From: Gammaproteobacteria bacterium
GTDB lineage: Bacteria; Pseudomonadota; Gammaproteobacteria; Burkholderiales; SG8-41
Assembly (NCBI GenBank): GCA_041483135.1
Contig: JBGPFE010000009.1
Location: 54,629 to 118,628 of the forward strand
Direction: 5' to 3'
Length of the DNA: 64,000 nt
This document shows positions 1-23,400 of this stretch, in pieces. Position 1 is the first letter of the stretch. Every line of letters starts with the position of its first letter. The notes beneath the pieces are model-generated. The model had not been told where the DNA came from and made no database searches. It saw only the letters and a list, made by a program, of their open reading frames with translations. Both the position numbers and the translations under genes were made by a program.

Positions 1-1046
1 ACGTGGTTGATGTCCTCGGGCCGGATGCGCGCTTCGAGGACCAGGCGCGGGTCGGCGGGCACGATGTCGAGCAGCATATCGCGCGGCCCGATCACGGCGC
101 CGACGCTGCCGACTTTCAGATCCACCACTTCGCCATCGACCGGCGCCACGACGCTCTGCCGCGTCGCTGCGTCCTTGCTCGGCCGCAGCCGCTCCTCGAT
201 CTCGAAAAGCTTGGCCGTGCTGTCCTTCAATTCGTCGGCGGCGGTCTGCGAAAACTGCGTGCGCAGGCTGATCTTGCGCAGCTCGGTTTCGGTGATGCGC
301 TGCCTGGATTTGGACAATTCCGCCTGGTGCTCGCCGACGCGGGCCTCGTAATCCAGCACCGCGCGCTGCACCGTCAGCACGCGCACCTTGCCGACGAAAT
401 TCTGCTTGAGCAGGTCCTCGTTGGCCTTCAACTCCTCGCGCTGGGAGGCAAGCGCTTCCATTTCGGCCTTGATCTGCGAAGCGGTCGCCGCCGATTCGAG
501 GCGCATTTCCTGGATTTGCCTGTCAAGCAGGTCGATCTGGCTCATGAGCGTCTCGCGGCGCGCGGTAAACAGCACCTGTTCACGGTGCAGGGTCTCGGCG
601 ACGCGCACATCGTTCTTGCGCGCCAGAAGATCGGCGCCGAAATCGATTCTCGGCGTGAGCGCCTTCTCCGCCGTCAGCCGCGCATTGCGCGCGCGTTCGG
701 CATCGTACTGCTGGAGCAGCAGGTCGAAGCTCGCGTCCACGCGCACATCGCCGATCACGATCAGCACCTGCCCGGCCTTGACGTGATCGCCGTCGCGCAC
801 GCGGATTTCCTTGACTATGCCGCCTTCCTGGTGTTGCACCGTCTTGCGGTTCATGTCGACTTTGATGAAGCCGGGCGCGACCACCGCGCCGGACAGCGGC
901 GCGAACACCATCCACAGGCCCAAGCCGCCGAACGCGACCGCGATCAACAGCAGCCCGGCGCGCACGATCGGCCATGCATCCGCGGCGTGCTCGACGTCGA
1001 TCGCCGGCACAAACAGCCCCCGCAGGCGTGCGATGAGCGCGCTCAT
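1..1046 (-). CDS. HlyD-family T1SS membrane-fusion protein (PrtE/AprE-like); 3' end beyond window
   Basis: Not in the ORF track because it is open to the window edge. My translation from ATG 1046 reads MSALIARLRGLFVPAIDVEHAADAWPIVRAGLLLIAVAFGGLGLWMVFAPLSGAVVAPGFIKVDMNRKTVQHQEGGIVKEIRVRDGDHVKAGQVL..., then a long coiled-coil, then ...VVAPVDGEVVDLKVGSVGAVIGPRDMLLDIVP. ATGA overlap with the upstream ABC gene stop. Confidence 0.85.
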   Translation of the reverse strand, partial: MSALIARLRGLFVPAIDVEHAADAWPIVRAGLLLIAVAFGGLGLWMVFAPLSGAVVAPGFIKVDMNRKTVQHQEGGIVKEIRVRDGDHVKAGQVLIVIGDVRVDASFDLLLQQYDAERARNARLTAEKALTPRIDFGADLLARKNDVRVAETLHREQVLFTARRETLMSQIDLLDRQIQEMRLESAATASQIKAEMEALASQREELKANEDLLKQNFVGKVRVLTVQRAVLDYEARVGEHQAELSKSRQRITETELRKISLRTQFSQTAADELKDSTAKLFEIEERLRPSKDAATRQSVVAPVDGEVVDLKVGSVGAVIGPRDMLLDIVPADPRLVLEARIRPEDINH

Positions 1047-2746: not shown

Positions 2747-2845
2747 GGCGCTACACCCTGCTCCGGTCAGTGCCCGTGTATTTGGTGGCTATATACAATG
2801 GATGGCGCCCCCAAGAATGCCCTTTTCCGAGCCGGAAAGTATACC

Positions 2846-3061
2846 TCAGGATGGGTAGCCAAGCCCCTGATTTTGCAGGGGGGTAGTGCACTGATTTGAA
2901 ACTCGCTCGGCCACTTCCTGCATAGACCGCAGGTTCCCGGCCACGCCGCCAGCCATGACCGGTGTAACGCGCACCGTCTTATGGACGCGCACGAAATGAT
3001 AGTGAGCGAAGTGCAGCGCGGCCGCTGCCCGGACTACGGCGATGCCGGCGGCCGGCGGCAC
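2846..3061 (-). pseudogene. C-terminal fragment of a DDE-type transposase/integrase
   Basis: 71-aa ORF containing LHFAHYHFVRVHKTVRVTPVMAGGV. This resembles the conserved C-terminal HYNF.R.HK.L..TPAMAAG block of transposases. No N-terminal catalytic part and no inverted repeats seen. Confidence 0.45.
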
Positions 3062-3091
3062 CGCGATCTTGTCTTGATCGCGGCCGCGCCG

Positions 3092-5758
3092 TCAGATGAT
3101 GTGAATGTCGGTAGCCGTGAGCGTCGGGTGGTTGGTCAGCGTCGCGACCTGGACCGCGGCCACTCCGCCCTGGCCGTCGGCGTCGTAATAGAGATTGCCG
3201 GTGGTCGTATTGTAGATCAGGTGATCGGTTGGGTTCTGCGCGGTGGTGAGGCCGGCGGCGGCGTGTAAGAACGAAGGATCGAGCGGGCCGGGCACGAGCC
3301 CCAGCGCGGTGAACACCGAATTCTCGAATTCCAGCGTATCACCGCCCACGCCGCCCGTGAAGTCGGTGATGGTGTCGACGTTGCTCGCGGCCGGCGCAGT
3401 GCTGAACACGAACGTGTCGGCGCCCGTGCCGCCCGTCAGTGTGTCTTTGCCGAGCCCGCCGTCGAGCGTGTCGGCGCCCGTGCCGCCGATCAGCTTGTCG
3501 AGGCCCAGGCCGCCGGCGAGCGTGTCGCCGTTGTCGTTGCCGGTGATCACGTTGTTGAGCGCGTTGCCGGTGCCCGTGATGGCCGCGCCGGCCGCCAGCG
3601 TGAGGTTTTCGACGTTCGCGTCCAGCACGTAGTTGTCGACCGTGGTCCTCACCGTATCGGCGGTGCCCCCATTGGCGAGCTCGACGATGGTGGCGCCCGC
3701 GCTGTTGACGACGTACGTATCGTTGCCGAGCCCGCCGGTCAGCGTGTCGGTGCCGCCGCCGCCGCCGTTGAGCGTGTCGTTACCGGCGAGTCCCGTCAGC
3801 GTGTCGTTGCCCAGGCCGCCGAGCAGAACGTTGGCCGACGCGTTGCCCGTCAGTATGTCGCCCAAGTCGTTGCCGGTGACGTTGAAGAGCCCGGTGCCCA
3901 ATATCGTCACGTTCTCGAAATTCGACAGATCCGGCGCGCCGCCTGCGCTCAGATCGACCGTGATCGGCGGGTTCACCGAAGGATTATTGAAGGCGATCTT
4001 CAGCGTGTCGTTGCCCTCGCCCAGGCTCTCGAACACCGTCCCGAGCTCGGACGCGTTGTCCAGCACATAGGTGTCGTTCCCCGCCTGGCCGTACATGAAA
4101 TCGTTGCCGGCGCCGCCGGTCAGCGTGTCGTTGCCGTTCCCGCCGTACAGCGTGTCGTTGCCCAGGCCGCCGTTGAGCGTGTCGTTGCCGTCGAAGCCGT
4201 TGAGCATGTCGTTGCCGGCGAGGCCGAGCAGAATGTTGTCGCCGCTGTTGTTGCCGATGACCTGGTTGTCCAGCGCGTTGCCGGTGCCGTTGGCGTTGCC
4301 CGCCGCATCGAGCAGCTGCAGGTATTCCACGTTCGCAGCGAGCACGTAGGTGCCGCTGCCGGAGAAGTCCACCTGGTCGGTGCCCGCGTTCAGCGCTTCC
4401 GTCACCATGTCGTAGGTCCCGTTGCTCGTGCCGTCCACCCCGTACGTGTCGTTGTCCGCGCCGCCCGCGAGCGTGCTCCTGCCGCTGCCGCTGGCCTCGA
4501 GATAATCGTTGCCGTTGCCGCCGTTGAGCTTGTCGTTGCCGCCTTCGCTGAAGAGCGAGTCGTTGCCGTCGCCGCCGTTCAGGATGTCGTTGCCGTCGCC
4601 GCCGATGAGAAAGTCGTTGCCGGTGCCGCCGTTGAGCGTGTCGTTGCCGCCGTACCCATAGAGCACGTCGCCGTTGTTGTTGCCGGTGATCACGTTGATG
4701 AGATTGTTGCCAAAGCCGTCGACCGCCGCGCCGGTCAGCGTGAGGTTCTCGACGTTCGCGACGGAGAACATCGAGAAGTCGACCGAGGCCACTACCGTGT
4801 CGGTGCCCTCGTTGAAGTTCTCGGTGATGGTCGCGTTCGTGTCGCCCACGAGGTAGGTGTCGTTGTTGAGGCCGCCGATCAGCGTGTCGAACCCCCCGCC
4901 GCCGTTGAGCGTGTCGTTGCCGGCGCCGCCGTTCAGCGTGTCGTTGCCGGCGTTGCCGTTCAGGATGTCGATGCCAATGCCGCCGAAGATCGTGTAAGCG
5001 TCGGCGGTCGTCACGGTGACCGTGTCGTTGCCGGCGCCCGCGTTGAGCGTCGCGCCGCCGGCCACGCTGGCGGTGATGGTGTCGTTGCCCGTCAGGAACG
5101 CGCCGCTCTGCGCCGCGTCAGCGACGTCGGTGAAAGAGTCGAAGAGCGAAACCTTCGCGACCGCCGGATTGAGCCCCATCATGTCGATCGAGTCGCCGTC
5201 GCTGTCGCTGAAGTGGATCTCCGTGAAGCCCCCCGTCACGGCGGTGCCGCCCGCGGTGAGCGTGAGCGCGCCCGTCAAGTCGAGTATATTGTCGCTCGTC
5301 TCGATGTGCGCGTGCGTGAGCGAGCCCGAGATCGCGCCCGCGCCCGAGATCGAGATGTGGCCGTCGAGCATCGCCTCCACGCCTCCCGCGTTGAAATGGC
5401 CGTGCGTGATGCTGCCGCTGGTGAGCGCGCCGGTGGTGGGGTTGAAATGCAGGCTGCCGATCATATCGAGCTCGTTCGCGCCGGTGCCGGTGAACGTCAG
5501 GGAAGTGACCGTGAACGCGCTCGGACTGAACGCGCCGAGCAGTATGAGCGTAGCGCCTGGATCGGAGGAGCCGGAGAGCAACGTGATGTCGAGTTCGGTC
5601 GGGCTAGAAAAGACGCTGTATGGATGACTGGGATTACTGAGGTCGGCATTGACCGCGTTAAACTGCGTCTGCGCGGCGCCGAGCTCGGTGATGACCTGAC
5701 TGACGTCGAAATCGAACGACGCCAGCGGCACGGTGCCGGTGAGATTGACGGTGGCCAT
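3092..5758 (-). CDS. RTX (GGxGxD nonapeptide) calcium-binding repeat protein, probable T1SS substrate
   Basis: 888 aa with dozens of GGAGNDTLNGG-type repeats and no N-terminal signal peptide. Acidic C-terminus ...LIYNTTTGNLYYDADGQGGVAAVQVATL...DIHII. GGGAG RBS before ATG 5758. Sits upstream of the ABC/MFP genes. Confidence 0.9.
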   Translation of the reverse strand: MATVNLTGTVPLASFDFDVSQVITELGAAQTQFNAVNADLSNPSHPYSVFSSPTELDITLLSGSSDPGATLILLGAFSPSAFTVTSLTFTGTGANELDMIGSLHFNPTTGALTSGSITHGHFNAGGVEAMLDGHISISGAGAISGSLTHAHIETSDNILDLTGALTLTAGGTAVTGGFTEIHFSDSDGDSIDMMGLNPAVAKVSLFDSFTDVADAAQSGAFLTGNDTITASVAGGATLNAGAGNDTVTVTTADAYTIFGGIGIDILNGNAGNDTLNGGAGNDTLNGGGGFDTLIGGLNNDTYLVGDTNATITENFNEGTDTVVASVDFSMFSVANVENLTLTGAAVDGFGNNLINVITGNNNGDVLYGYGGNDTLNGGTGNDFLIGGDGNDILNGGDGNDSLFSEGGNDKLNGGNGNDYLEASGSGRSTLAGGADNDTYGVDGTSNGTYDMVTEALNAGTDQVDFSGSGTYVLAANVEYLQLLDAAGNANGTGNALDNQVIGNNSGDNILLGLAGNDMLNGFDGNDTLNGGLGNDTLYGGNGNDTLTGGAGNDFMYGQAGNDTYVLDNASELGTVFESLGEGNDTLKIAFNNPSVNPPITVDLSAGGAPDLSNFENVTILGTGLFNVTGNDLGDILTGNASANVLLGGLGNDTLTGLAGNDTLNGGGGGTDTLTGGLGNDTYVVNSAGATIVELANGGTADTVRTTVDNYVLDANVENLTLAAGAAITGTGNALNNVITGNDNGDTLAGGLGLDKLIGGTGADTLDGGLGKDTLTGGTGADTFVFSTAPAASNVDTITDFTGGVGGDTLEFENSVFTALGLVPGPLDPSFLHAAAGLTTAQNPTDHLIYNTTTGNLYYDADGQGGVAAVQVATLTNHPTLTATDIHII

Positions 5759-10615: not shown

Positions 10616-11932
<1,317 letters not shown>

Positions 11933-12065
11933 TCACCCTTGTCAAAGACGTGGCCGGCCGCCCGGAAGCCGGGCGCCGCAAGTGAGTCAGAGAATGGGGC
12001 AAACCGCGGCGAAAATCAACACGCCGCCTGCGTTCCGAGCGAGGCCGGTAGAATCCTTGCGCCGT

Positions 12066-12179
12066 TCACCGCTCGCGCCACGCATCATGCACGGTCTTTG
12101 GGATCGGAGACAGCAGGTATTCGATCACCGAGCGGTTGCCGAAATGGATCTCGGCTGCGACCTGCATGCCGGAGGTCAT
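12066..12179 (-). pseudogene. hlyD 3'-end remnant A (last 37 codons)
   Basis: Encodes MTSGMQVAAEIHFGNRSVIEYLLSPIPKTVHDAWRER*. By eye about 90% nt identity to the 3' end of intact hlyD (14871-14985). Confidence 0.85.
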
Positions 12180-12430
12180 TTCTTTGCGTTATCCATCCAC
12201 TCATGCATTTCACGATTTTCCTTTGCTGCTTCCCTGCGCCGCTCTCGGATAAACTCATCAACTAAAGATTTTTTCGTTCTGATACGCCTACGCACGAGCT
12301 GTTGCAAGCGCTTCAACATGCTCCTGCGAGTTAACATAGAGACGGTCATTGGAAGCGAGAATCAGATCAAGTTTGGAGAGAACGGATTTTAGATCAAATT
12401 GCTCCGCTTGCGTGGCGCAAACTAGACTGC
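12176..12430 (-). pseudogene. Frameshifted AbrB-type vapB-like antitoxin remnant
   Basis: One frame gives ...RRRIRTKKSLVDEFIRERRREAAKENRE..., compared with intact VapB IRRKRGKSLVDEFLAERRAETRRERAKR. The upstream frame gives LDLILASNDRLYVNSQEHVEALATA, compared with VVLILEPDSVRLMTHRAAIARAQ. Its TGA overlaps the ATG of remnant A. Confidence 0.6.
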
Positions 12431-12492
12431 TACCGCTCTGCACGATGGCTGTGGGACACCGGGCAGACTCAAGCGATGACGGAGCAGTATGG

Positions 12493-12521
12493 TTATGCTC
12501 TCTGCCCCAAACTGCTAGAAT
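12493..12521 (+). promoter_or_regulatory. Candidate extended -10 promoter for hicB-like gene
   Basis: TGcTAGAAT at 12513-12521, weak -35 TTATGC with a 17-nt spacer, about 26 nt upstream of ATG 12547. Confidence 0.4.
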
Positions 12522-12546
12522 GCGGCGAATCCGAACTCAGCGGTGC

Positions 12547-12729
12547 ATGTTTATGAAAACCTGCACCGCAGCGATCGAGCGCTGTCCGGATACCGGACTC
12601 TACGTCGGCTACATTCCCGGCTTTCCCGGCGCGCATTCGCAGGCCGCCACCCTGGATGAATTAGATGCTAATCTCAAAGAAGTCATCGAAATGTTGAGCC
12701 AGATCGAATCGCCGCGTATTGAATCTTAG
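12547..12729 (+). CDS. hicB: HicB-family (UPF0150) antitoxin-like protein, no adjacent HicA
   Basis: Trimmed from ORF 12349-12729. M(FM)KTCTAAIERCPDTGLYVGYIPGFPGAHSQAATLDELDANLKEVIEMLSQ matches the HicB N-terminal fold pattern (..Y.A.VP.LPGC.SQG.T.EEA..N..EAI). Confidence 0.7.
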   Translation: MFMKTCTAAIERCPDTGLYVGYIPGFPGAHSQAATLDELDANLKEVIEMLSQIESPRIES

Positions 12730-12741
12730 CAGGACGATTTA

Positions 12742-12927
12742 ATGACAAAGAGCGAGCTCAAAACCACACCTTACGATTCGGCGGAGTATCTTAGCGACGA
12801 AAAGGATATCGCCGTCTATCTTAATGCGGCGCACGAAGGCAATGATCCGGCGCTCATCCGCCATGCATTGAGTGTCGTTGCGCGGGCGCCAGGATTGCGG
12901 CGAGCGTCCATGAAGGACGAAGGGTGA
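12742..12927 (+). pseudogene. Truncated HigA-type 'addiction module antidote' protein (HTH half missing)
   Basis: MTKSELKTTPYDSAEYLSDEKDIAVYLNAAHEGNDPALIRHALSVVARA matches the N-terminal half of about 95-aa antidote proteins. The sequence then diverges and stops at 61 aa, abutting the RES gene 3' end. Confidence 0.6.
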
Positions 12928-12956
12928 TTTTCAGCAAGAAGTCCCTTCCTCGCCGC

Positions 12957-13424
12957 TCAATTCTTTTTCCACAGCCTTGGATCGAAAGAAAACGGCTCCG
13001 GTCGCAATACTTTTATGCGACTGAAATAGGGATGCCGGGGATTCAGAAGATAGTTGAACTCGTCTGCGACCAGCGCCGATGGAACTTTGAGCACCGCATG
13101 TCGCGCCGCGGCGCACCAACGGCTACCCAAATCCATGGTGGCGTCAATCGGAGGAGAGGATTTCCAGTGCCGGGGAAGAGTGGCGGAATCGACAGTTTCC
13201 AGGATCATATCGTCCGGAACTGTGGCGCGCACCGATACCAACGCTATCGCGGCGTCCCTGCGGCCCAGATGGACAAGGTACTCCAGCGCCGCGAGAGACA
13301 GCGTCGCGGCCGTGTATACGATCGGATGGCCCTTGTGATGCCAACGGCCTGAGGCATCCAGACCGCCTGTCCCTGAAAATACTGCTTTTGCGTATCGCTC
13401 CTTGCAGATCCTGTAGACGATCAT
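12957..13424 (-). CDS. RES-domain toxin (NAD+-targeting RES/ParT/MbcT family)
   Basis: Start trimmed to MIVYRICKERY... Contains GRWHHKGHPIVYTAATLSLAALEYLVH (R, E, S signature region). ATGA overlap with the upstream antitoxin (13421-13424). Confidence 0.88.
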   Translation of the reverse strand: MIVYRICKERYAKAVFSGTGGLDASGRWHHKGHPIVYTAATLSLAALEYLVHLGRRDAAIALVSVRATVPDDMILETVDSATLPRHWKSSPPIDATMDLGSRWCAAARHAVLKVPSALVADEFNYLLNPRHPYFSRIKVLRPEPFSFDPRLWKKN

Positions 13425-13861
13425 GCAACAAAGCCGTGCTCGATACGCTGCAGTTCTTCCTCCACCTCTCTCGTTCCTGCCTCGGTTTCGATCAGATCGA
13501 ATGGCATCCGATCCCCCAGGCCCGCCTGATTCGCGGACAGCCACTCCAGTGCCTGGCTCCGGCTTTCCAAAACCTCCTCGGCCAGCGCCACGATTTTGGC
13601 CGTGCGGTAGAGGCGGTCGCTCACCGCTGGCTTCATACGCGGGGTGCTTCGAAGGCCCACTAGCCGATCGATGGTCCGCGCGCTGACACCAAGCGCGCGC
13701 GACAGTATGGTGTTCGGAAGCTTGGTATTTGCTTTGAATTTCACGAAGACCTGCGAGCGGAAGCCGCGCCTGATCTCCTCATCGAAGTCCAGCTCGCGCT
13801 CCACCTTCGTCCCGATCACCCGCTCACCACCCAACAGATCGATTACGAGTTGTTCGCTCAT
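13421..13861 (-). CDS. Xre-type antitoxin with C-terminal DUF2384/ParS/MbcA toxin-binding domain
   Basis: 146 aa. HTH region LPNTILSRALGVSARTIDRL. C-terminal ALEWLSANQAGLGDRMPFDLIETEAGTREVEEELQRIEHG. Confidence 0.85.
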   Translation of the reverse strand: MSEQLVIDLLGGERVIGTKVERELDFDEEIRRGFRSQVFVKFKANTKLPNTILSRALGVSARTIDRLVGLRSTPRMKPAVSDRLYRTAKIVALAEEVLESRSQALEWLSANQAGLGDRMPFDLIETEAGTREVEEELQRIEHGFVA

Positions 13862-13895
13862 AGTGAACTCCGGACAGTGTCAGACATTTGTCGGT

Positions 13896-13924
13896 ATTAT
13901 ATACGTCATATGTCAGGGATGCAA
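13896..13924 (-). promoter_or_regulatory. Near-consensus sigma70 promoter of xre-RES, with operator-like palindromes just downstream
   Basis: Minus strand reads TTGCAT-17 nt-TATAAT. GACAgTGTC and GACAttTGTC palindromes lie at 13873-13892, between the -10 and the ATG. Confidence 0.6.
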
Positions 13925-13925
13925 A

Positions 13926-14105
13926 TTACCTCTCCCTCCACGCCTCGTGCACGGTCTTCTGGATTGGCGAGAGCAAGTATTCGATCACCGAGCGGTTGCC
14001 GAGCATGTCGACCGCCACAACGGCAGCGATTGCTGCGCCGTGCGCGAGCGCGAGGATCGCGGCCAGTATCGTCGAAAACCGCAGATTGATTCTCAGCGCC
14101 GACTA
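13926..14105 (-). pseudogene. hlyD remnant B (N-terminal TM-like segment fused to last about 24 codons)
   Basis: Encodes ...LRFSTILAAILALAHGAAIAAVVAVDMLGNRSVIEYLLSPIQKTVHEAWRER*. 27-nt and 25-nt blocks are identical to the intact hlyD 3' end. No start codon. Confidence 0.75.
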
Positions 14106-14155
14106 TGCATTCGTAAAAGGACGTCCGGACACATTATAGCTATGGCGCGCGCAGC

Positions 14156-14184
14156 TTGATTCCCTGAATATGGCCATTTATAAT
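14156..14184 (+). promoter_or_regulatory. Sigma70 promoter of phd-vapC module (possibly leaderless transcript)
   Basis: TTGATT (14156-14161), 17-nt spacer, TATAAT (14179-14184). ATG 14191 lies 7 nt after the -10. Confidence 0.55.
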
Positions 14185-14190
14185 ACACAA

Positions 14191-14436
14191 ATGGACATTT
14201 CAGTTACCGACTTCAAACACCGCTGTCTTGAGATAATCCGCAAAGTGGAGAAAACCGGCAAGCCTGTCACACTGACGCGCCGCGGCAAACCGGTTGCCCA
14301 TCTGGAAGCGAGCTCGGTGCATGGAGTCGCCAACAAGGCGAAGCCGTGGGAGCGCCTGCGCGCGCTGGGCGGCCGCCTGCTTGCCGGGCCGGGCGAGTCA
14401 GTGCTGCGCGACGAGGACTTCGAGGCGCTGCGCTGA
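14191..14436 (+). CDS. Phd/YefM-family antitoxin
   Basis: MDISVTDFKHRCLEIIRKVEKTGKPVTLTRRGKPVAHLE is a typical Phd/YefM N-terminus. The ORF-track start at 14170 lies inside the promoter spacer. Confidence 0.8.
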   Translation: MDISVTDFKHRCLEIIRKVEKTGKPVTLTRRGKPVAHLEASSVHGVANKAKPWERLRALGGRLLAGPGESVLRDEDFEALR

Positions 14437-14834
14437 AAGTACTGCTCGACACCCATGTCTGGGTATGGTGGCTGACGCCAAATTCGCCGCTGTCCGGCAC
14501 GGAACGTTCTGCGCTCGACACGAGCGCCGCGCGCCAGGGACTCTTTCTTTCAGCCGTGAGCCTGTGGGAGGCTCAGGTGCTGCACGCCAAAAATCGGTTG
14601 AAACTACCGTTGCCGTTCGCCGACTGGCTCCGCCGGGCAGCCGACGAGCGCATGATTTCAGTGGTGCCGCTCGATACGGACGTGATCCTTGCCCTCGATG
14701 CGCTGCCGGAAACTTTTCATGGCGATCCGGCTGACCGCTTGATTGTTGCTACGGCATGTGCACACAGTCTGCCGTTGGCCACTCACGATGCGGCAATTCG
14801 ACGCAGCCGCACCGTTACGCTCTGGAAACCGTGA
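14346..14834 (+). CDS. vapC: PIN-domain VapC-family toxin (start uncertain; conserved core begins about 14433)
   Basis: Core LKVLLDTHVWVWWL...FLSAVSLWEAQVL...DPADRLIVATA...LATHDAAI. The only in-frame starts are GTG 14346 (91-nt overlap with phd) or CTG 14433 at the position of a usual ATGA junction. Confidence 0.8.
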   Translation: MGAPARAGRPPACRAGRVSAARRGLRGAALKVLLDTHVWVWWLTPNSPLSGTERSALDTSAARQGLFLSAVSLWEAQVLHAKNRLKLPLPFADWLRRAADERMISVVPLDTDVILALDALPETFHGDPADRLIVATACAHSLPLATHDAAIRRSRTVTLWKP

Positions 14835-14870
14835 AGCCAAAGGCCGGCTGCTGACAAACGACCACGCTGG

Positions 14871-16244
14871 TCAGCGCTCCCGCCACGCCTCGTGCACGGT
14901 CTTCTGGATCGGGGACAGCAGGTATTCGATCACCGAGCGGTTGCCGAGATGGATCTCCGCCGCGACCTGCATGCCGGGGGTGAGCTTGTAGCGCAGGCCC
15001 TGCGCTTCGAGCTGCGATGAATTCAATGCCACGAGCGCGCGGTAGCTGAGGCTGGCTGGAGCATTCGCGCTGTCGGGCGGCGGCTTGCGGTCGCTGCTGG
15101 CATCCGCGTTCTTGTCGGTCGCGTCGTACGTGACATGACGCACCACTCCGTCGAGCATGCCGTACTTCTGGAACGGGTACGCTTCGAGCTTGATCTTGAC
15201 CTTCTGGTCGACTTCGACGAAGCCGGAATCGATGTTGCTGACCCAGACTTCCGCAAGCAAAGGCTCGTTGTGCGGCACCAGCGTCAGCAGCACGGTACCG
15301 GGAGATACCACCGTGCCCTGCGTATGCGTGGCGAGGTCCTTGACGATTCCGGCCTGCGGCGCCTTCAGCTCCAGCAAACCATGCTTGTATGTATTCTTCG
15401 CAAGCTCCTGGTTTAGCTTGCTGTACTGCGACTCGGCGTCGATCCGTTCGTTGTGCAACTGCTGCTGATAGTTGGAAGTGATCTGCGCGATGCGCTTGCT
15501 CGACTGCGCGATGGTCGCCTTGAGCGACTCGACGTTCTGGGTCTGCGCCTGCAGTTCCTGCTCGGTTTCGATGCGGCTGCGCGTGCGGTCGAGCGCCATC
15601 AGCTTGCCCGCGAACCCTTCCTTGGCGAGCTGGTTCCAGCCTTTTTCCTGCTCCTGGTAGATCGGCAGCGTCTGCTTGAGCTTGCTCTGCACTTCGATCG
15701 CGCTATTGAGATCGTGCTGCACTTTCGAAAGCGCCGCGCGTTCGGTGTCGAGCGCGTCCTGGTACGCCTGGCGGTGAGACCGAAACTGCGCGTCGACCTG
15801 CGCGTAAAGCGCCACGTCATCGCCTGCTTTTTTGGCGAGCGACACACCCTTGAGTTCCGCATCGATACGGCGCAGCTGCAGCACCCTCAACTGATAGTCG
15901 TTGTCGAGCACTTTGCGGTCCGCCACCGAAATGCTGGTGTCCATGCGCATGAGCGCCTGGCCGGCGACGACCTCGTCGCCTTCCTTCACCAGGATCTCCT
16001 TCACGACGCCCGAGTCCGCCGGCTGCACAACCTTGAGAAAGCTCTGCGGCACGAGCTTGCCCTGCGCGACCGCGACGATATCGAGCCTGCCGAACGTGGC
16101 CCAGACCAGCAACACTGCGAACAATGCCAGCAGCGCGTACAGAATCAGCCGCGGCAACGGCGAAGGCGGCGCGTGCTGCGCCTGCAGGATCGCGGGCGCG
16201 AAATCGAGCGCGTCGGCAGACAACTGCCGGATCCGGTTGATCAT
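14871..16244 (-). CDS. hlyD: HlyD-family T1SS membrane-fusion protein (HlyD type)
   Basis: Start trimmed to MINRIRQLSADALDFAPAILQAQHAPPSPLPRLILYALLALFAVLLVW.... Compare E. coli HlyD EFLPAHLELIETPVSRRPR followed by a TM helix. Long coiled coil. C-terminal LGNRSVIEYLLSPIQK. ATGA overlap with the vapC stop. Confidence 0.9.
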   Translation of the reverse strand: MINRIRQLSADALDFAPAILQAQHAPPSPLPRLILYALLALFAVLLVWATFGRLDIVAVAQGKLVPQSFLKVVQPADSGVVKEILVKEGDEVVAGQALMRMDTSISVADRKVLDNDYQLRVLQLRRIDAELKGVSLAKKAGDDVALYAQVDAQFRSHRQAYQDALDTERAALSKVQHDLNSAIEVQSKLKQTLPIYQEQEKGWNQLAKEGFAGKLMALDRTRSRIETEQELQAQTQNVESLKATIAQSSKRIAQITSNYQQQLHNERIDAESQYSKLNQELAKNTYKHGLLELKAPQAGIVKDLATHTQGTVVSPGTVLLTLVPHNEPLLAEVWVSNIDSGFVEVDQKVKIKLEAYPFQKYGMLDGVVRHVTYDATDKNADASSDRKPPPDSANAPASLSYRALVALNSSQLEAQGLRYKLTPGMQVAAEIHLGNRSVIEYLLSPIQKTVHEAWRER

Positions 16245-16621
16245 CGAATCAGTTCCAGATTGAAACGTTTTTTCAGCTTTGACCAGGCCCTGTCCGCCGT
16301 CAGAATGCGTCCTTTCAGATATTTGCCGGTCGCCAGGCACACGCGGTCCCCAAGCGACAGGCCGGCGCCGCGAATTCGTTCAAGACAACCCGCCTCGAAG
16401 GCGAGATCGGAATCGAGATCGAGCAGCTTCAGGCGCATGGCAAGTATCGAATTCCGCAGGGCGATGGTGTCAATCTCCCTGCGCGCAGCAAACCCAATGA
16501 CCTCGGCCAGATTCACGACGTTCATGTACGCCTGCTCGTCCATCGCGGCGGCGACTCTATCCGCCCCGTCCTCGCGCAGGATCAGCGCGAGCAACGCGGA
16601 CGCGTCGAGCACGAATATCAT
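16241..16621 (-). CDS. vapC: PIN-domain VapC toxin
   Basis: 126 aa. MIFVLDASALLA..., NLAEV, GDRVCLA, LTADRAW acidic-residue pattern of PIN nucleases. ATGA overlaps at both ends (16618-16621 with vapB, 16241-16244 with hlyD). Confidence 0.88.
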   Translation of the reverse strand: MIFVLDASALLALILREDGADRVAAAMDEQAYMNVVNLAEVIGFAARREIDTIALRNSILAMRLKLLDLDSDLAFEAGCLERIRGAGLSLGDRVCLATGKYLKGRILTADRAWSKLKKRFNLELIR

Positions 16622-16881
16622 CGCTTCGCGCGCTCCCGCCGCGTCTCGGCGCGGCGTTCAGCCAGAAACTCGTCAACCAGCGATTTGCCCCGCTTGCGCC
16701 TGATCGGCGCGCACAGAGTTTGCGCCCGCGCGATCGCCGCACGGTGCGTCATCAGCCTGACCGAATCCGGCTCCAGAATCAGCACCACGTCTTCCCCGGG
16801 ATTGATCGCCAGCGACCGCCGATACTCGGCTGGAATCACCACCCGTCCATGCGGACCCATCTTGATGTGTACCCTCGGCAT
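16618..16881 (-). CDS. vapB: AbrB/SpoVT-type VapB antitoxin
   Basis: Start trimmed to ATG 16881 with a GGGAG RBS. MPRVHIKMGPHGRVVIPAEYRRSLAINPGEDVVLILE is a swapped-hairpin AbrB-like motif. Confidence 0.82.
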   Translation of the reverse strand: MPRVHIKMGPHGRVVIPAEYRRSLAINPGEDVVLILEPDSVRLMTHRAAIARAQTLCAPIRRKRGKSLVDEFLAERRAETRRERAKR

Positions 16882-16940
16882 CGTTGCGCTCCCGTGTTGA
16901 TGTGTCAATTTTTTGTTATTAGGCCATAAATATAATAATC

Positions 16941-16964
16941 TGTCACTTATTTATAATAATGACA
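16941..16964. promoter_or_regulatory. Candidate VapB operator / promoter region
   Basis: TGTCA-N14(AT-rich)-TGACA inverted repeat. TATAATAAT occurs twice (16931-16939, 16952-16960) in the AT-rich gap upstream of vapB. Confidence 0.35.
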
Positions 16965-16982
16965 AATTAGCGCATTCCTGTC

Positions 16983-17019
16983 AAAAACGATGGGCGGACG
17001 CTGCGACGCGAAACCGCCC
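16983..17019 (-). terminator. Rho-independent terminator after the DUF3467-like gene
   Basis: Minus strand has GGGCGG...CCGCCC stem (17019-16992) followed by ATCGTTTTT. Confidence 0.55.
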
Positions 17020-17031
17020 CCGCCGGCGATA

Positions 17032-17385
17032 TCAGTGCTTGCTGTCTTTTTTCGCCGGCTCTGCCTTGGCCGCACCTTGCGCCTTGAGCCCGGCGACTAC
17101 CTGCCCCAGCTGCTGGTGCAGCGCGGCGAGCGTGTCGTAGCCGAGCGCAACGCGTACCGCGAGCTTGCCGGTCAGCGTCTCGGGAATTTTCCCGCCCGAG
17201 CGCGCGAGCTGCGACAGCGCCGCAAGCGCCGCCGGCTCGAGAAAACCGAAATCGACGAACACCATGCCCGGCGCGCCGTTGAGGCGCGTGAAGTTGGCGA
17301 GCACCGGCTGGTCGGAATTCCCGACCGGCGCGAGCCTGATGTTGAGGCCGACGGTTTTTTCCTGCTTTTCGTTCTGTTCTGCCAT
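17032..17385 (-). CDS. Small hypothetical protein, tentatively DUF3467-like
   Basis: Start trimmed to MAEQNEKQEKTVGLNIRL... (GGAAG RBS). The pattern LNI.L......LANFTRLNGAPGMVFVDFGFLEP....KLAVRVALGYDTLAALHQQL resembles DUF3467 (LNIEL..YSN...I.HS..EFV.DF....P...V..RI.L....AKRLL.AL). Confidence 0.7.
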   Translation of the reverse strand: MAEQNEKQEKTVGLNIRLAPVGNSDQPVLANFTRLNGAPGMVFVDFGFLEPAALAALSQLARSGGKIPETLTGKLAVRVALGYDTLAALHQQLGQVVAGLKAQGAAKAEPAKKDSKH

Positions 17386-17418
17386 GTAGTTGCTTCCTTG
17401 ATTAAGTACTCCGTTTTG

Positions 17419-17456
17419 CCCTTCACTCTTCACTCATTCACCCTTCACGTCACCTC
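17419..17456. repeat. Single array of TTCAC-containing 7/8-nt repeats
   Basis: TTCAC at 17422, 17429, 17437 and 17444, plus GTCAC at 17449. Lies between the giant gene stop and the next start. Confidence 0.7.
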
Positions 17457-20400
17457 AACCCAGTTTCACCAGCCCATCCTGCAATCCGGCGAGCGGCTGC
17501 AGGGTCTGCGGCGCGGAACCGAATTGCGCACTTGCCAATATGCTTTGCGCAGCATTAGTGGCAATGCCCGATAACGTTCCGTTCAACCCAAAGCGATACG
17601 CGAGATCGCCGCCGATAGCTTCAGTATCGCTGCCCGCGAGATGCGCATCGAGCAACGCGTTCATTACCGACCAGTGATTGGCATTGCTTGACGAAGCCGC
17701 CCGCGCCTGGTCGAATTTCTGCACGATCTTGCTGAAGTCGAACAGCTCGACTTTGTTGTCGCGCAACGTATCGGGGCCGCCCGGCGCGAAATCGCTCATC
17801 GCCTCGGCGATCACCTGCAGATTGAGCACGCTGCGGTTGTTCGCGTTCGCGTACCAATCCTTGAGCGTGACGTCTTCGTTGATCGCGGTCTGAAGCACAA
17901 GGCTGTTGCCCTGCTTGCTCAGGAACAGGTCGGCGTAGCGGATGCCGCCGCCGAGCGAGACCGTGTTGTCCTGCCCTGTGCTCGCCGCGACCGTGTCGTG
18001 GCCGTCGCCATGGTTGAACGCGATTACATCGGCGCCCGCGCCGGTCGTGATCGTGTCGTTGCCGGCTCCGCCAATGAACATCTCGTTGCCGGCGCCACCG
18101 GTCAGCGTGTCGTTGCCGTCTTTCGCGTAGAGCAGGTTGTTGCCGAATGCATCGGTCAATGTATCGTTGCCGTCATCGCCTTCGAGCAGGTCGTTGCCAC
18201 GGTCGCCGTTAAGCGCATCGTTGCCGCCGCCGCCGGCAAGGAAATCGTTACCGGCGCCGCCGAACAAGTCGTCGTTACCAAACCCGCCGAGCAGCACGTC
18301 ATCGCCGCTCGAAGCCCACAGCGCATCGTTGCCGTCGCCGCCGTCGAGCGTAACGTCACCGTAGGCGTAGTCCTGACTCGTCAGATCGATCACATCGTTG
18401 CCGGCGCCGCCTTCGATGCGCTCGATGCCGGAAATCCGCGGCACGCGGGTGCCGCCGGGGAATGCGCTGTAGCTATCGTCCAGCGCCAATACGTCATCGC
18501 CGCTCGTGCCGGTGAGCGTATCGTTGCCGCTGCCGCCATTGAATACATCGAACGAACGGTTCTTGCCGGCGATCACCGCGGTTTTATTGGTACTCGGATT
18601 TCCCGGGCTGCCGTCGTTGCGCGCGACAAACCCGCCATTCCATTTGCCGTCCGCATAGTAGATAAACCCATCGTCGCCGCCATTGCCGTTCAGCAGGTCC
18701 GTATTGCCAAGCCCATTCAGCGTGTCGTTGCCGGGCCCGCCGTTCAGCACATCGGGGTTCGGCGTGCCGACGAGGTTCAGGCCGCTACCCGTGCCGACCG
18801 TGACGTTGAATACATCGGATGCGCTCAGGCTGCCGCTATCAGTTGCGCCGACCTTGATCGATAACACCCCCGCGTCGGCGGCTGCCGGTGTACCGCTGAA
18901 GGTACGGGATGCAGCGTTAAATGCCAGCCACGACGGCAGCGGCGAGCCATCGGCCGACTGCGCGCTGTAGCTGAGCGTGTCGCCAATGTCGACGTCGGTA
19001 AACGTGTTGGCTGCGAACTGGAAGGCGAATGACGATCCCGCCGTGGCCGTCTGGTCCGCGATGGCATTCGAGAGCACCGGCGCATCGTTGGTGTTGGCGA
19101 CGCTGATATCGAAGGTATCGAACACCGAGGCGCCCGCAGTATCGGTCGCGGTGACCTTGATGCTGACGGCGCCAACGTCCGCATTCAGTGGCGTGCCGGT
19201 AAAAATGCGGGTTGCGGCATTGAACGTCAACCATGACGGCAGCGCACTGCCGTTGGCGCGCATGGCCGTATAGCCGAGTGTGTCGCCCACGTCCACGTCC
19301 GCGAACGTGTTGTCCGGAATCGTGAAACTGAATGCCGCGTCCTCGGTTGCTGCCTGGTCTGCAATAGCAGTGGCCAAAATCGGCGCATCGTTCGAATTGG
19401 CGACCGCCACGTCAAAAGTATCGAACGCGGAGGCGCCTGCCGTATCGGTTGCGGTCACCTTGACGCTTACCGTCCCGACGTCGGGATTCAACGGCGTGCC
19501 GGTAAAAGTATGGGTTGCGGCATTGAACGTCAGCCACGACGGCAGCGCACTGCCGTCTGCACGGTCGGCACCGTATGTCAGCGTGTCTCCCACATCAATA
19601 TCGGCGAACGTATTGGCTGGCAGCGTAAAGCTGAACACGCTGTCCTCGGTCGCCGCCTGATCCTCAATTGCGGTAGCCAGCATCGGCGCGTCGTTGGTGT
19701 TGGCTATCGTCACGTCAAACGTGTCGAACGCCGACGCGCCAGCTATGTCGGTTGCCGTGACCTTGATGCTCGCCGTGCCGACATCGGCGTTCAGCGGCGT
19801 TCCTGAGAACGTGCGCGTCGCTGCGTCGAACCCGAGCCAGTCCGGCAATGCCGATCCATCCACCGCCACCGCGCTGTAAGTCAAGGTATCGCCAACATCT
19901 ACATCGCTGAACGTGTTGGCAGGCAGCGTGAAGCTGAATGCGCTGTCCTCGCTTGCCACCTGATCCGCCATCGCATTGGCGAGAATTGGCGCGTTGTTGG
20001 TGTTGATGACTGTTAAATCGAACATATCAGTAGCGTTGAGGCTGCCTCCATCAGTCGCCGTGAGTTTGACACTGAACGTGCCGACGTCGTTGTTACCAGG
20101 CGTGCCGGTAAACGTTTCTGTCTCTGGATTAAACGCAAGCCATGCCGGGAGCGTTGAATCGTCGCTGAGCGAAACGGACAGCGTAAGCGTGTCACCAGCA
20201 TCCACGTCGGTAAACGTACCGACAGGCACAGTGAAATTGAATTGTGCATCCTCCAGCGCGCTCTGGTCGGAAACTGGGTTCGCCAACACCGGTTGGTGAT
20301 TTAAGGCAGTGCTGGTCACTGTTAGCTGGAACGTATCGGGTATCACGTACGTCCCAATGCTGGCGCCCGATACCTTCTCAGCAGCAGTAACCTTGACATC

Positions 20401-23400
20401 GATCGTACCGACATCCGTGCTGCCGGGCGTGCCGCCGAACGTCCGAGAATTACCGTCGAAGGTCAACCAACCGGGAAGCGCGCTACCGTCGGTCAGGCTG
20501 GCGGCATAGGCGTAGTCATGGCTGGAATCGAGGACATCAAAAAATGCGGTTGTCGAAAACTGTAGATTGAATGCGCTGCCTTGTGCGACGGTTTGATTAC
20601 CGATAGGGTCGGGTAGTGTGTGCAAGACGCCGGATGCGGCGCCGTTTGCCAATTGCTCGAGAGTTGTCGAATCCCAATACGAATGATCGGCAAATTGAAC
20701 ACGCTCTACGGCATAGCCAGAAAGCGGAAACCAGCGAATTGCCAGTTGGTCCTGAGTACCGTTGATTCCTATGTATATGTTGTCGTCGTCCCGCGTGATA
20801 GCCAGATCGGTTGAGGAGATGCCATCGCCCAACGCAATCTTGTCGAAATTCCCAAGATTCAGATCAAAATCGATAATAGAATCCTGGCCTGACCCGCGAC
20901 CGAATACATACGTGTCATTGCCCGCGTTCCCGCTTAACTTGTCGTTGCCGGCTCCACCATCCAGCACATCGTTCCCGTCCCATCCAAACAAGCTATCGTC
21001 GCCGCCGGATCCATTGACAATATCGTTACTGAATGTTCCGTAAAAGACATCAGAGCCGCTTGTAGGCAGAAACGCCTTGGCGTACAGATTATTGACTTGC
21101 CAGACTGTCCCGTCGCTGAATCGGACCTGCTCGACGTTATCTCCCTCGAAATCATTCAATGAAACTGAGAACCAGTGATCCAATATGACCTGATCGCTCG
21201 TGCCGCTGAGTGTAAGGAACAGCCGTCCCGCATTTGTCGAGGGCGGGTCGGCGGAAACAATGATATCTGCCGGTGCGATAGTAGCGCCGAACTCAATCGT
21301 GTCGACGCCTCCTGAACTATCACCCCTGTCGGAAGTAAAGCTGCGCGCGGTAAGGCCTGAAGGCGGTGCTTCGACGACCAGATCGTTCCCGAATCCGCGA
21401 TCGAAGCGGTAGACATCGTCGCCGAGGCCGCCATAGAGATCGTCGTTGCCGGGACCGCCTATCAAAATATCGTTGCCATCTCCCCCGTACAGGAAGTCAA
21501 CTCCATTCCCACCGGCAACGATATCGTTGCCCGCATCGGCAGCAATGCGATCGTTGCCGTCGTCCCCGGATAAATTGTCGTCACCATCACGGCCAGAAAT
21601 GTAGTCGTTTCCTGCGAGTCCCGCGATGACATCAGAGCTCGTAGTTCCGGAGAGAAAATCATTGCTAGCGCTGCCGATAGTATTCATGCGATTGGCCAGA
21701 TCGCTGAAGGACCAGCTAGTCCCGTCGCTGAATTGGACTGACGCTGGAATTGCAATGCTCGAAAGTCCACCCAGCGATGCGAGCCCGTTCTTGATCGTGA
21801 TCCGATCGGCGCCGGCCCCCACGATAATATTCAGATCGCCACTAGCGAAGCTATTGAATGTCGAAGTGATCGTTGCGGTCAGTTGGACATCTGCCGGAAG
21901 GATTCCGGTACCGAAAAAGATGCTGTTAGAACTGGCGGCGGTGCCGGTGCCACTACTATCCTGGTAGGTGTCCTGGCCGAAGCCGGGATTAAATATGTAG
22001 CGGTCATCACCGTCTCCGCCACGTAGCGTGTCATTGCCTGAGTTGCCCGTAATTGTGTCGTTGCCCGAGGCACCGGTTATTGTGTCATTGCCTGCCAGCC
22101 CGTCAATGACGGCATCCTTAAATGACGACGTAGTGGAAGCATTTATCGTGTCATTCCCGTTCGTTCCCGTGATGTAGTTTCTGTAATAGTCGGCAAGGTC
22201 CCACACTGTTCCATCGGAGAATTCAGCTCGCTCAACCCGATTTGCGCCAGGACTCGCAACCAGGGAAAGACGGTCGCTGCTACCGGCAAGATTGAAAAAA
22301 ACATGCGAGGCATCACCACTAACCGATATATCTTGCGGCCGAACACCCGCTGCGAAACGGATGGTATCTGTGTCGGTGAAGAATACCCCTTGACTGTACA
22401 GTTCATCTATTGTGTCGCGCCCCGAACCGTACCCAAATAAATAAATGTCATCGCCCTGCTCTCCCCAGAGCGTATCATCACCGGCTCCGCCATCGATTAT
22501 GTCGTTCCCGTCGCCGGCAAAACACTGATCGTTGCCGGCCTCGCCAAACAGAACATCATCCCCGGCCTCGCCCGTAAGCATATCGTTGCCGCTGCCACCG
22601 CTCAGTGTGTCATCACCATCCCCGCCATATAACCGGTCAATACCCGAGCCCGCCGCAAGTACATCGTTACCGTCGTTTCCCTGAATCGTGTAATCGCCGC
22701 CATCGACAGTGATCGAGTCGTCCGTTGATAGCCCATATAGATAGGTCCGGCCACTGATAATCAAAGGTCCGCTTGCTTGACGAATGTAATCCAGATCCCA
22801 TACCGTTCCATCGCTGAAATCCAAGGTGAAGCCGTCATCGCCGCGAAAGAGCGCGTCATACAGCATGATCTGATCTGTTGTGCCTTGGTGGTACAACGTG
22901 ATGACTTGATTGACGTCCGGGGCCCCGACAATAATATCGGCGGGCGCAATCCCGGCACCAAACACCAGCTTGTCCTGCCCTAACCCGCCGCCGAAATAAT
23001 CGTCGCTAATAATATCCTGCCCCCAACCCGCCTCGAAGAGCATTGTAGTGACCCCCGCGGCACCGCTGAGGAAGTCATTCCCCGCGCCGCCTTCGAGATA
23101 GTCATCTCCTGCACCGCCGATGAGAGTATCGTCGCCGCCGTCACCGTAGAGCAGATCATTCCCGTCGCCGCCTTTGAGCGTGTCGTTTGCGCTGCCTCCA
23201 AATAGTGTGTCATTCCCAGCTTGCCCGAGCAGCCGATTACTTTTGCTATCGACGGCAAGCACATCATCGGACGGTGTTCCCGAAATCGCTCCTCCGGATT
23301 CCAGCAATGCGTATTCGAGACGTTGTGCCACATCGTCTGGCGTGAGAACTGTGCCGTCGGCAAATACGAACCGCGAGATAGAAACATTCTTTGAAAATGT

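Follow-up and report, generated by a model that had tools for sequence, protein, structure and literature searches.

In a 64,000-nucleotide stretch of a betaproteobacterial genome (contig JBGPFE010000009.1; hereafter the window), the hlyD gene of a type I secretion system (T1SS) is followed by two additional copies of its own 3′ end, with toxin–antitoxin (TA) genes lying between the copies. We think it probable that this array preserves the traces of additive allele replacement, which would have happened twice at the 3′ border of the T1SS gene cluster. Judged from the sequences, the hlyD tails appear to be relics of earlier resident hlyD alleles, and neither target duplications nor parts of the TA cassettes. 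The evolutionary process itself is known, and the array adds a new example of it, seen in unusual detail. The intact gene (14871 to 16244, minus strand) encodes a 457-amino-acid membrane-fusion protein (MFP) with matches to the Pfam families HlyD_3 and HlyD_D23, and these domains, together with its linkage to genes for an ATP-binding cassette (ABC) exporter and an RTX protein, mark the product as a HlyD-family T1SS protein.

All three tails lie on the minus strand in one shared orientation. Tail C is the end of the intact gene (its last 37 codons plus stop, 14871 to 14984), whereas tail B (13926 to 14003) comprises the last 25 codons plus the TAA stop of a putative displaced hlyD allele, and tail A (12066 to 12176) the last 36 codons plus stop of what would be the oldest displaced allele, now decaying. 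Comparison with the intact gene by blastn yields 90% identity over 111 nucleotides for A (E 1e-39) and 93% over 72 nucleotides for B (E 1e-26), which bears out the three same-orientation hlyD 3′ ends reported in a preliminary description of this DNA. That description also held that identical blocks of 25 to 27 nucleotides are common to the three copies. A 24-nucleotide block, ATTCGATCACCGAGCGGTTGCCGA, is indeed present in all three (exactly 3 occurrences versus 0 expected), but the 27-nucleotide block CCACGCCTCGTGCACGGTCTTCTGGAT occurs in B and C only and not in A.

To place these tails, we used a comparison set of 80 related genome loci and metagenome contigs, with loci labeled L001 onward. 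A pattern scan of the metagenome contigs contributed four loci, two of them key, and close HlyD homologues (93% amino acid identity) were also looked up. Homology among the tails ends with the stop codon for B and C, and for A it extends 11 nucleotides into a post-hlyD spacer of the type present in L089. When both sequences are read side by side, tail C differs from the tail of L088 and L089 at two positions. The same array recurs in independent assemblies from several samples, and therefore is not an assembly artifact. Exact-protein look-ups with HlyD, Xre, and Phd returned the same array only, with an identical HlyD protein in six contigs.

The substitutions that separate the tails are informative about where the copies diverged. 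Among the 75 sense nucleotides of the shorter tail, 7 distinguish B from C (90% identity), all through synonymous changes, and both tails encode an identical, conserved HlyD C-terminus. In a random-substitution simulation of the B–C pattern, 9 of 100,000 trials were fully synonymous (P ~9e-5). This indicates that B diverged from C inside a working gene, rather than as a drifted local duplicate. Tail A has ten changed codons relative to C, six synonymous and four nonsynonymous, the latter including L-to-F and Q-to-P changes that are found at those positions in none of the tails listed from related loci. Given these four nonsynonymous changes, tail A looks like an older pseudogene that is gathering amino acid changes.

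These patterns bear on the idea that slippage or unequal crossing-over copied the tail locally, with TA cassettes being inserted between the copies later. The window copies are 83 to 90% alike, which is closer than any of them is to the tails of most other genomes. However, a non-coding duplicate should change regardless of codon position, the gene fragment that precedes tail B stands in the “wrong” order (see below), and in L108 an intact hlyD gene is followed by the same downstream cassette. We therefore regard local duplication as extremely improbable.

The DNA that precedes tail B (14004 to 14095, minus strand) is a fragment, cptA′, of a membrane-protein gene similar to cptA/ygfX; it covers the first ~31 codons, has lost the start codon, and is fused in frame to the tail. 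It shares 77% nucleotide identity with the first ~93 nucleotides of the cptA gene of L088 and L089, which lies directly 3′ of hlyD in those loci. In close strains the cptA gene after hlyD encodes 144 amino acids, and the Pfam family Cpta_toxin matches the products from L089 and L090. A cptA-like gene is located downstream of hlyD in 11 loci, and is immediately adjacent to it in L087 through L091, L016, and L013, which makes it the customary neighbor of hlyD in this family. The order in the closest strains is hlyD tail then cptA, whereas in the window cptA′ comes before the hlyD tail, and this reversal is as expected for an illegitimate joint of two different molecules. At the joint, cptA codon 31 is fused to hlyD codon -25 (counted from the stop) with at most 1 to 3 nucleotides of microhomology, and the resulting chimeric open reading frame (ORF) of 58 codons lacks the cptA start codon.

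The preliminary description had instead included tail B in a larger hlyD deletion derivative reaching to 14105. In that case, the stretch at 14004 to 14095 would be the N-terminal transmembrane segment of HlyD, retained after an internal deletion. This candidate is ruled out, because L088 and L089 show that the stretch is the start of cptA.

The DNA on the other side of tail B leads to a different strain. The closest homologue of the window Xre protein (93% amino acid identity) is encoded by the metagenomic contig L108, in which an intact hlyD gene (464 codons) is followed by a 64-nucleotide spacer of the same length and with the same promoter as in the window, and then by xre and RES. At the nucleotide level, the two are 88.6% identical over window positions 14007 to 13264, so that the match starts at the B joint. 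On this evidence, the predicted B-state, in which hlyD is followed directly by xre-RES, exists in nature in L108. Thus, of the uninterrupted ancestors that the preliminary description proposed to seek in related genomes, one has a counterpart for the B-type arrangement, and none was found for A.

A second line of evidence comes from the intact hlyD gene itself. We aligned it with two reference alleles, the cptA-type one of L089 and the xre-RES-type one of L108, and scored the sites at which these differ. The gene is a mosaic, with nucleotides 1 to 40 being L086-like, ~100 to 170 L108-like, and 170 to the end L089-like. The ratio of L108-like to L089-like informative sites is 24:9 up to column ~170 and 32:255 thereafter (Fisher P 7e-14, for a breakpoint chosen post hoc), and the breakpoint maps to 16077 to 16085. 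The mosaic gene and the L108 homology that begins at the B joint together place L108-like DNA on both sides of an L089-like block. This block appears to run from inside hlyD, via the stop codon and phd-vapC1, to cptA codon 31, and both of its flanks are visible.

These observations suggest how the array could have been assembled. Incoming DNA from a related strain would carry an hlyD allele with its downstream neighbors. On the left side, it would be incorporated by homologous recombination inside or upstream of hlyD, and on the right side by illegitimate joining to the resident hlyD gene, a few dozen codons before its stop. This process would amount to homology-facilitated illegitimate recombination (HFIR), or to an insertion with a subsequent deletion that has the same effect. 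The body of the resident hlyD gene would be lost, while its last 25 to 36 codons and all downstream DNA would be kept, shifted one step away from the intact gene. In the younger event, a linear, L089-like, C-type fragment may have replaced nucleotides ~170 to 1296 of a resident L108-like hlyD. This fragment would extend from hlyD nucleotide ~170 through the stop codon and phd-vapC1 to cptA codon 31, and its arrival would leave cptA′ fused to tail B, followed by xre-RES. In the older event, a B-type segment (hlyD_B, xre-RES, higA′, hicB′, and abrB′) would have displaced an A-type hlyD adjoining the hpsN operon, with tail A left behind abrB′.

The same kind of displacement can be recognized, as an independent case, in another pair of genomes. 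In L085, hlyD is followed by a glutathione S-transferase (GST) gene. In L008, a divergent hlyD (80% identical to that of L085 over the last 259 nucleotides) is followed by a TctC-family gene, then by a 140-nucleotide hlyD remnant, and then by the same GST gene, with 96.4% identity to L085 from the remnant onward. Here the joint is at hlyD codon -46, 140 nucleotides before the stop. Because this displacement occurred without a TA gene, the process seems to belong to the hlyD border and not to TA genes, which are thus not required for it. L086 likewise carries a TctC-family gene just after hlyD, although it is only 67% identical to that of L008 over 182 nucleotides, so this sort of neighbor recurs. 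In each case for which a reference is available, the DNA after the fragment corresponds to the DNA after an intact hlyD in another strain (L108 for tail B and xre-RES, L085 for the L008 remnant and GST); tail A has no such reference. As a separate observation, the interval between the TctC-family gene and the remnant in L008 (12480 to 12620) contains nested palindromes, AGCAGCCTGT...ACAGGCTGCT and GTCGGACTTA...TAAGTCCGAC, which could represent a REP-like or terminator element at the joint.

The positions of the joints vary. They lie at cptA codon 31 and hlyD codon -25, at the abrB′ stop and hlyD codon -36, and, in L008, at hlyD codon -46, and the left ends of the repeats lie 75, 108, and 140 nucleotides from the stop. 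This variation matters for the view that small circles carrying an hlyD tail as their attachment site integrated at the terminus, in a site-specific or Campbell-type manner, and rebuilt the gene each time. Such a scheme accounts for tails that form direct repeats flanking cargo and for the reconstituted intact gene, and one crossover in the tail of a circle containing the tail, vapC1, phd, and cptA′ (codons 1 to 31) would give the same map. Against it, the left ends differ, abut unrelated gene fragments, and share no common crossover core. In addition, no integrase or other recombinase is encoded between 12000 and 17000, where every ORF apart from hlyD and the tails is a TA component or TA debris. 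The xre-RES cassette also occurs in L109, L110, and L112 without an hlyD tail, and a lone crossover within the tail would fail to exchange 1.2 kb of the hlyD body for L089-like sequence. We consider integration of this type very unlikely.

The cassettes themselves have the features of passengers. The phd-vapC1 unit (14170 to 14834, plus strand) is convergent with hlyD and consists of phd (14170 to 14436; Pfam PhdYeFM) and the PIN-domain gene vapC1 (14436 to 14834, with overlap from 14433). On the minus strand, xre (13421 to 13861; Xre/MbcA) precedes the RES toxin gene (12957 to 13424). A promoter-like site, TTGATT-17-TATAAT, is located before phd (14156 to 14184, plus strand), and a promoter/operator region precedes xre (13896 to 13925, minus strand, promoter-like site from 13925 to 13896), with its -35 hexamer beginning directly after the tail B stop. 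Each site matches the consensus at 10 of 12 positions. These sites, and Pfam matches to HicB-like, HigA-fragment, RES, Xre/MbcA, Phd, and PIN proteins, substantiate the preliminary statement that TA units with their own near-consensus promoters lie between the tails. Phd-VapC, Xre-RES, and AbrB/MazE-VapC (the last located upstream of hlyD) are adjacent antitoxin–toxin pairs with Pfam matches above gathering scores, and are predicted type II TA modules.

In the window, the xre-RES cassette is a 0.95-kb unit (12957 to 13916, minus strand) that extends from a palindromic operator/promoter, GACATnTGnCGTATATAAT...CGACAAATGTC, to the RES stop codon. More distant copies of it, corresponding to window positions 13916 to 12960, are found in three further contexts without an hlyD tail (L109, 9904 to 10862; L110, 2033 to 2975; L112, 1140 to 2084), and among these four unrelated contexts there are no flanking repeats and no common flanking site. 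Its occurrence elsewhere without a tail indicates that the cassette is a self-contained passenger of which the tail is not a part. No attC-like inverted repeats bracket the cassettes, and no intI gene is present among the scanned ORFs. We conclude that the TA cassettes are passengers, compact and self-promoted, that settled in the post-hlyD spacer of different strains, and are not agents of the recombination. As to whether cassettes occupy the same site in other strains, xre-RES follows hlyD in L108, but none of the window’s TA genes was found near hlyD among the 80 related genome loci.

With these results, the alternatives of “serial insertion or recombination” offered in the preliminary description can be separated. 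Serial recombination is favored, as the tails keep the downstream DNA of old alleles. There is no support for TA units having been inserted at an hlyD site, given the varied joint codons, the fusions to unrelated gene fragments, the xre-RES cassettes elsewhere that have no tail, and the TA-free case of L008. The junctions likewise revealed neither a recombinase nor a shared site of the kind that description had envisaged, with the B joint sharing at most the few nucleotides given above.

Several details of the phd-vapC1 unit are noted in passing. The phd promoter-like site overlaps the first ATG (14170), and a second ATG at 14191 (MDISVTDFK) would give a leaderless or near-leaderless mRNA. The PIN domain of vapC1 is intact, but its reading frame has no ATG, GTG, or TTG start (it overlaps the phd stop as CTGA, 14433), and gene calls give only 85 to 92 amino acids. 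The VapC1 toxin may therefore be poorly translated, or heading to inactivation.

The region between RES and tail A contains gene fragments. A gene fragment designated higA′ (12742 to 12927, plus strand) encodes the N-terminal 61 amino acids of a HigA-type antitoxin (Pfam dnstrm_HI1420, profile positions 2 to 49 of 90) and has no toxin partner. Next to it, hicB′ (12553 to 12729, plus strand) encodes a 58-amino-acid HicB/UPF0150-like fragment (Pfam UPF0150 and HicB_lk_antitox, positions 4 to 43 of 123). Frame translations of 12330 to 12560 show no hicA pseudogene upstream of hicB′; the other strand instead carries abrB′ (12176 to ~12470, minus strand), a pseudogene of an AbrB/MazE-type antitoxin with in-frame stops, which abuts tail A and adds to the genes listed in the preliminary description. 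A tblastn search with the window AbrB protein matches abrB′ at 43% identity over residues 47 to 92 (E 5e-9 against that stretch alone). The interval from RES to tail A (12176 to 12927) thus holds only antitoxin debris (higA′, hicB′, and abrB′) and no toxin partners, a state that fits with toxin genes being lost before antitoxin genes.

The stop codon of abrB′ and the first codon of the tail A ORF overlap in the sequence ATGA. This arrangement mirrors that at the start of the intact gene, where the abrB-vapC2 cassette (16241 to 16908, minus strand; Pfam MazE_antitoxin and PIN) is located between orf133 and hlyD, inside the T1SS operon, and the vapC2 stop overlaps the hlyD start as ATGA. The cassette is missing in all other relatives, in which orf133 abuts hlyD, save for a relic of the same architecture in L086. 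There (2872 to 2943), the last 16 codons of a vapC2 homologue are ATGA-fused to an hlyD gene with the same MINRI N-terminus, and orf133 is absent. The abrB-vapC2 cassette is part of the same plastic neighborhood, but is not one of the tail units.

At the far edge of the variable region (12028 to 12065, minus strand), 11 nucleotides of L089-type post-hlyD spacer follow tail A, and then comes a joint. From ~12028, the window is 93% identical to L092 and L094, in an hpsN/hisD-like operon. The gene next to the array (10616 to 11929, minus strand), similar to hisD, carries the JGI name sulfopropanediol 3-dehydrogenase (HpsN), and it heads an operon with a short-chain dehydrogenase/reductase (SDR) gene and genes for a NitT/TauT-type ABC transporter. 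In L087, by comparison, hlyD-cptA directly abuts an ABC ATPase gene, without hpsN-SDR. We infer the older displacement step from tail A and its surroundings, and it would have taken place at this border. An A-state, with hlyD_A next to the hpsN flank, was not found by following hpsN homologues, and the operon was found in other contexts without a T1SS.

A different history is also conceivable. Two or three complete tandem hlyD or T1SS loci, each with its own TA genes, might have been present at one time, and then have collapsed through deletions, one from cptA codon 31 to codon -25 of hlyD_B and another from the start of a vapC′ gene to codon -36 of hlyD_A. This two-step route yields exactly the same final joints, and the parallel between abrB′-(ATGA)-tail A and the extant abrB-vapC2-hlyD operon makes a deletion within an older unit plausible for joint A. 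However, it needs more events (two acquisitions and two deletions), and two complete hlyD copies were found in none of the 80 loci or metagenome contigs within the flanking DNA examined. Moreover, the sole other MFP gene of the window (12 to 1037) encodes a protein only 24% identical to HlyD, and cannot be the source of the tails. The L108-like patch in the intact hlyD gene is explained by replacement and not by a downstream deletion. The collapse of tandem paralogous T1SS loci, also put forward in the preliminary description, reproduces the joints, but no tandem copies were seen among the loci compared, and we judge it unlikely.

Another possibility to weigh is that the tails were kept for a function, either as small ORFs (37 amino acids at A and the 58-amino-acid chimera at B) or as expression signals for the TA genes. 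Gene callers do predict the 37-amino-acid ORF, whose ATG overlaps the upstream stop, and the xre -35 hexamer begins right after the B stop. Nevertheless, tail A has the unusual L-to-F and Q-to-P changes, the B chimera has no cptA start codon, and xre-RES is found in other upstream contexts with different -35 regions. The tails also contain no Rfam family or terminator-like element, and an Rfam scan of 11000 to 18000 gave nothing relevant. A retained function seems to us a very remote prospect, and the tails are most likely functionless. Annotations should accordingly mark both the 37-amino-acid “gene” at A and the B ORF as pseudogene fragments.

Several points weigh against additive replacement as we have described it. 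All joints lie in the last 140 nucleotides of hlyD, which is not what random illegitimate joining over ~1.3 kb predicts. Survivorship is a candidate explanation for such short remnants (~70 to 140 nucleotides), in that longer direct repeats would recombine and be lost. One-step HFIR and insertion followed by deletion are indistinguishable by sequence alone, and this organism would need competence or another route of DNA uptake. L108 serves as a proxy for the resident strain, since its tail is only ~79% identical to B (counted on the alignment), versus 90% between B and C, and its orf133 tail is only 77% identical to that of the window. The hlyD remnant of L008 shares informative sites with both the intact gene of L008 and L085, a mixed pattern whose origins may have been blurred by gene conversion between the two L008 copies. 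Among the loci compared, none represents an intermediate or ancestral stage of the older event, and L092, the closest hpsN relative, has a different upstream neighbor. A later deletion inside an abrB′-vapC′-hlyD unit would account for joint A equally well.

Additive replacement has precedents. The arrays of orphan effector tails and immunity genes at type VI secretion loci of Vibrio cholerae are explained by sequential displacement, with HFIR as the proposed mechanism (Kirchberger et al. 2017, PMC5361080). In those arrays, as in the process proposed for hlyD, a conserved upstream gene acts as the homologous anchor, the new module arrives beside machinery genes, the old module and the 3′ end of the old gene are shifted downstream, and repeats of this process build an array. 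The cases differ in what is displaced and what is retained. What is displaced in V. cholerae is a polymorphic toxin gene, and its immunity gene is kept as cargo, to obvious benefit. Here, the displaced gene encodes a conserved HlyD adaptor, the tails are nearly identical at the protein level, and the cargo is type II TA genes or, in L008, a solute-binding protein gene.

The same model has been proposed for orphan modules of Rhs and contact-dependent inhibition (CDI) systems (Jackson 2009; Poole 2011; cited in PMC5361080). Rhs and CdiA loci similarly have strings of same-orientation 3′ fragments after one full-length gene, each with its own partner genes. In contrast to the hlyD tails, however, Rhs/CDI orphans keep a short conserved core plus a variable toxin domain that can be reactivated by recombination. 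The hlyD tails have no variable toxin domain with a cognate immunity gene, but only a conserved HlyD C-terminus with type II TA neighbors, and recombining with them gains nothing.

HFIR has reportedly been described in transformable bacteria, in work said to be that of de Vries and Wackernagel in 2002, Prudhomme and coworkers in 2002, and Meier and Wackernagel in 2003. It is also known from conjugation in Escherichia coli (PMC3240628). These events resemble the one proposed here in that one end is anchored by homology and the other is joined illegitimately, with microhomology slight or absent, whereby foreign DNA is gained and recipient DNA is deleted. The published cases are laboratory events, whereas here the event is reconstructed from its product in an uncultured betaproteobacterium.

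Integrative elements that reconstitute a gene end, such as e14 and phage 21 at icd and the islands that target tRNA or tmRNA genes, also restore the intact gene and leave direct repeats of its 3′ end, which differ from one another by synonymous changes. These elements have an integrase and a fixed crossover core, neither of which is present here. The TA cassettes of chromosomal integrons and genomic islands are said to stabilize flanking DNA, as attributed to Szekeres in 2007 and to Wozniak and Waldor in 2009. The array resembles such regions in that type II TA modules with their own promoters, and TA remnants in decay, are densely clustered within a horizontally acquired stretch of low GC content, the GC fraction falling from ~0.67 in the flanks to 0.50 to 0.56 across 12050 to 14300. 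It differs from integrons in having no attC or integron integrase, and in that the cassettes are bounded by a promoter/operator and a stop codon and not by flanking repeats. Stabilization of chromosomal regions by TA systems is established (PMC7167474).

It is tempting to ask whether the TA genes influence which recombinants survive. We speculate that a “TA ratchet” operates, wherein clean replacement loses the resident antitoxin gene and the cell is killed, so that only joints upstream of the cassette promoter, in the hlyD tail or the spacer, survive. Orphan immunity genes are retained by a similar logic, although here post-segregational killing would be the driver. If true, TA addiction turns allele replacement into allele addition, the TA cassettes are the cause of the fossil tails, and the fact that the cargo between the window tails is only TA genes and antitoxin debris is accounted for. 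We hold this proposal tentatively and with more doubt than belief. The displacement in L008, however, needed no TA gene. A literature search for T1SS, TA, and illegitimate recombination together found no paper.

If additive replacement is the correct reading, displacement scars arise also at a conserved secretion-machinery gene and not just at polymorphic toxin genes. It is uncommon for natural HFIR-like events that donor-type and recipient-type sequences can both be recognized on either side of one event. The 3′ border of the RTX/T1SS cluster would be an exchange hot spot among soil betaproteobacterial strains, and the locus offers a natural setting in which to ask whether TA cassettes bias recombination outcomes.

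A rearranged hlyD locus is seen in L054 (3085 to 3153 and 9046 to 11164), a metagenome-assembled genome in which the gene is split. Its codons 1 to 356 lie on one strand, while the last ~100 codons have the inverted orientation beside an IS3-like transposase fragment. L054 also has an extra decayed hlyD tail fused to a truncated ABC substrate-binding gene.

The T1SS cluster to which the intact hlyD gene belongs is on the minus strand of the window, and also includes genes for an ABC exporter, an RTX protein, and Orf133. The exporter gene (32217 to 34349) has a weak C39-like match (E 7e-4) that falls short of the Pfam threshold. The RTX gene (17455 to 29823) encodes a 4,122-amino-acid protein with calcium-binding (GGxGxD-type) repeats. 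Between it and hlyD, orf133 (17032 to 17433) encodes a conserved small protein that is 78 to 86% identical in L005, L007, and L008, and belongs to no Pfam family. A gene for a REP-associated Y1 transposase (RAYT; Pfam Y1_Tnp plus a C-terminal helix–turn–helix) lies between the exporter and RTX genes (30587 to 31453, minus strand). It is the only transposase-like gene of the window, and a homologue with 60% amino acid identity is present in L034. A whole-window repeat search, whose output was dominated by RTX repeats, revealed no REP-like repeat family linked to the RAYT gene.

A second, unrelated T1SS is located at the left end of the window (12 to 5758, minus strand), with genes for the MFP mentioned above (12 to 1037), an ABC exporter (1043 to 2746), and an 888-amino-acid RTX protein (3092 to 5758). 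Finally, the giant RTX gene contains at least four tandem 303-nucleotide repeats (19038 to 20150, minus strand) that are 64 to 77% identical, and these encode repeated domains of ~100 amino acids upstream of the nonapeptide blocks.

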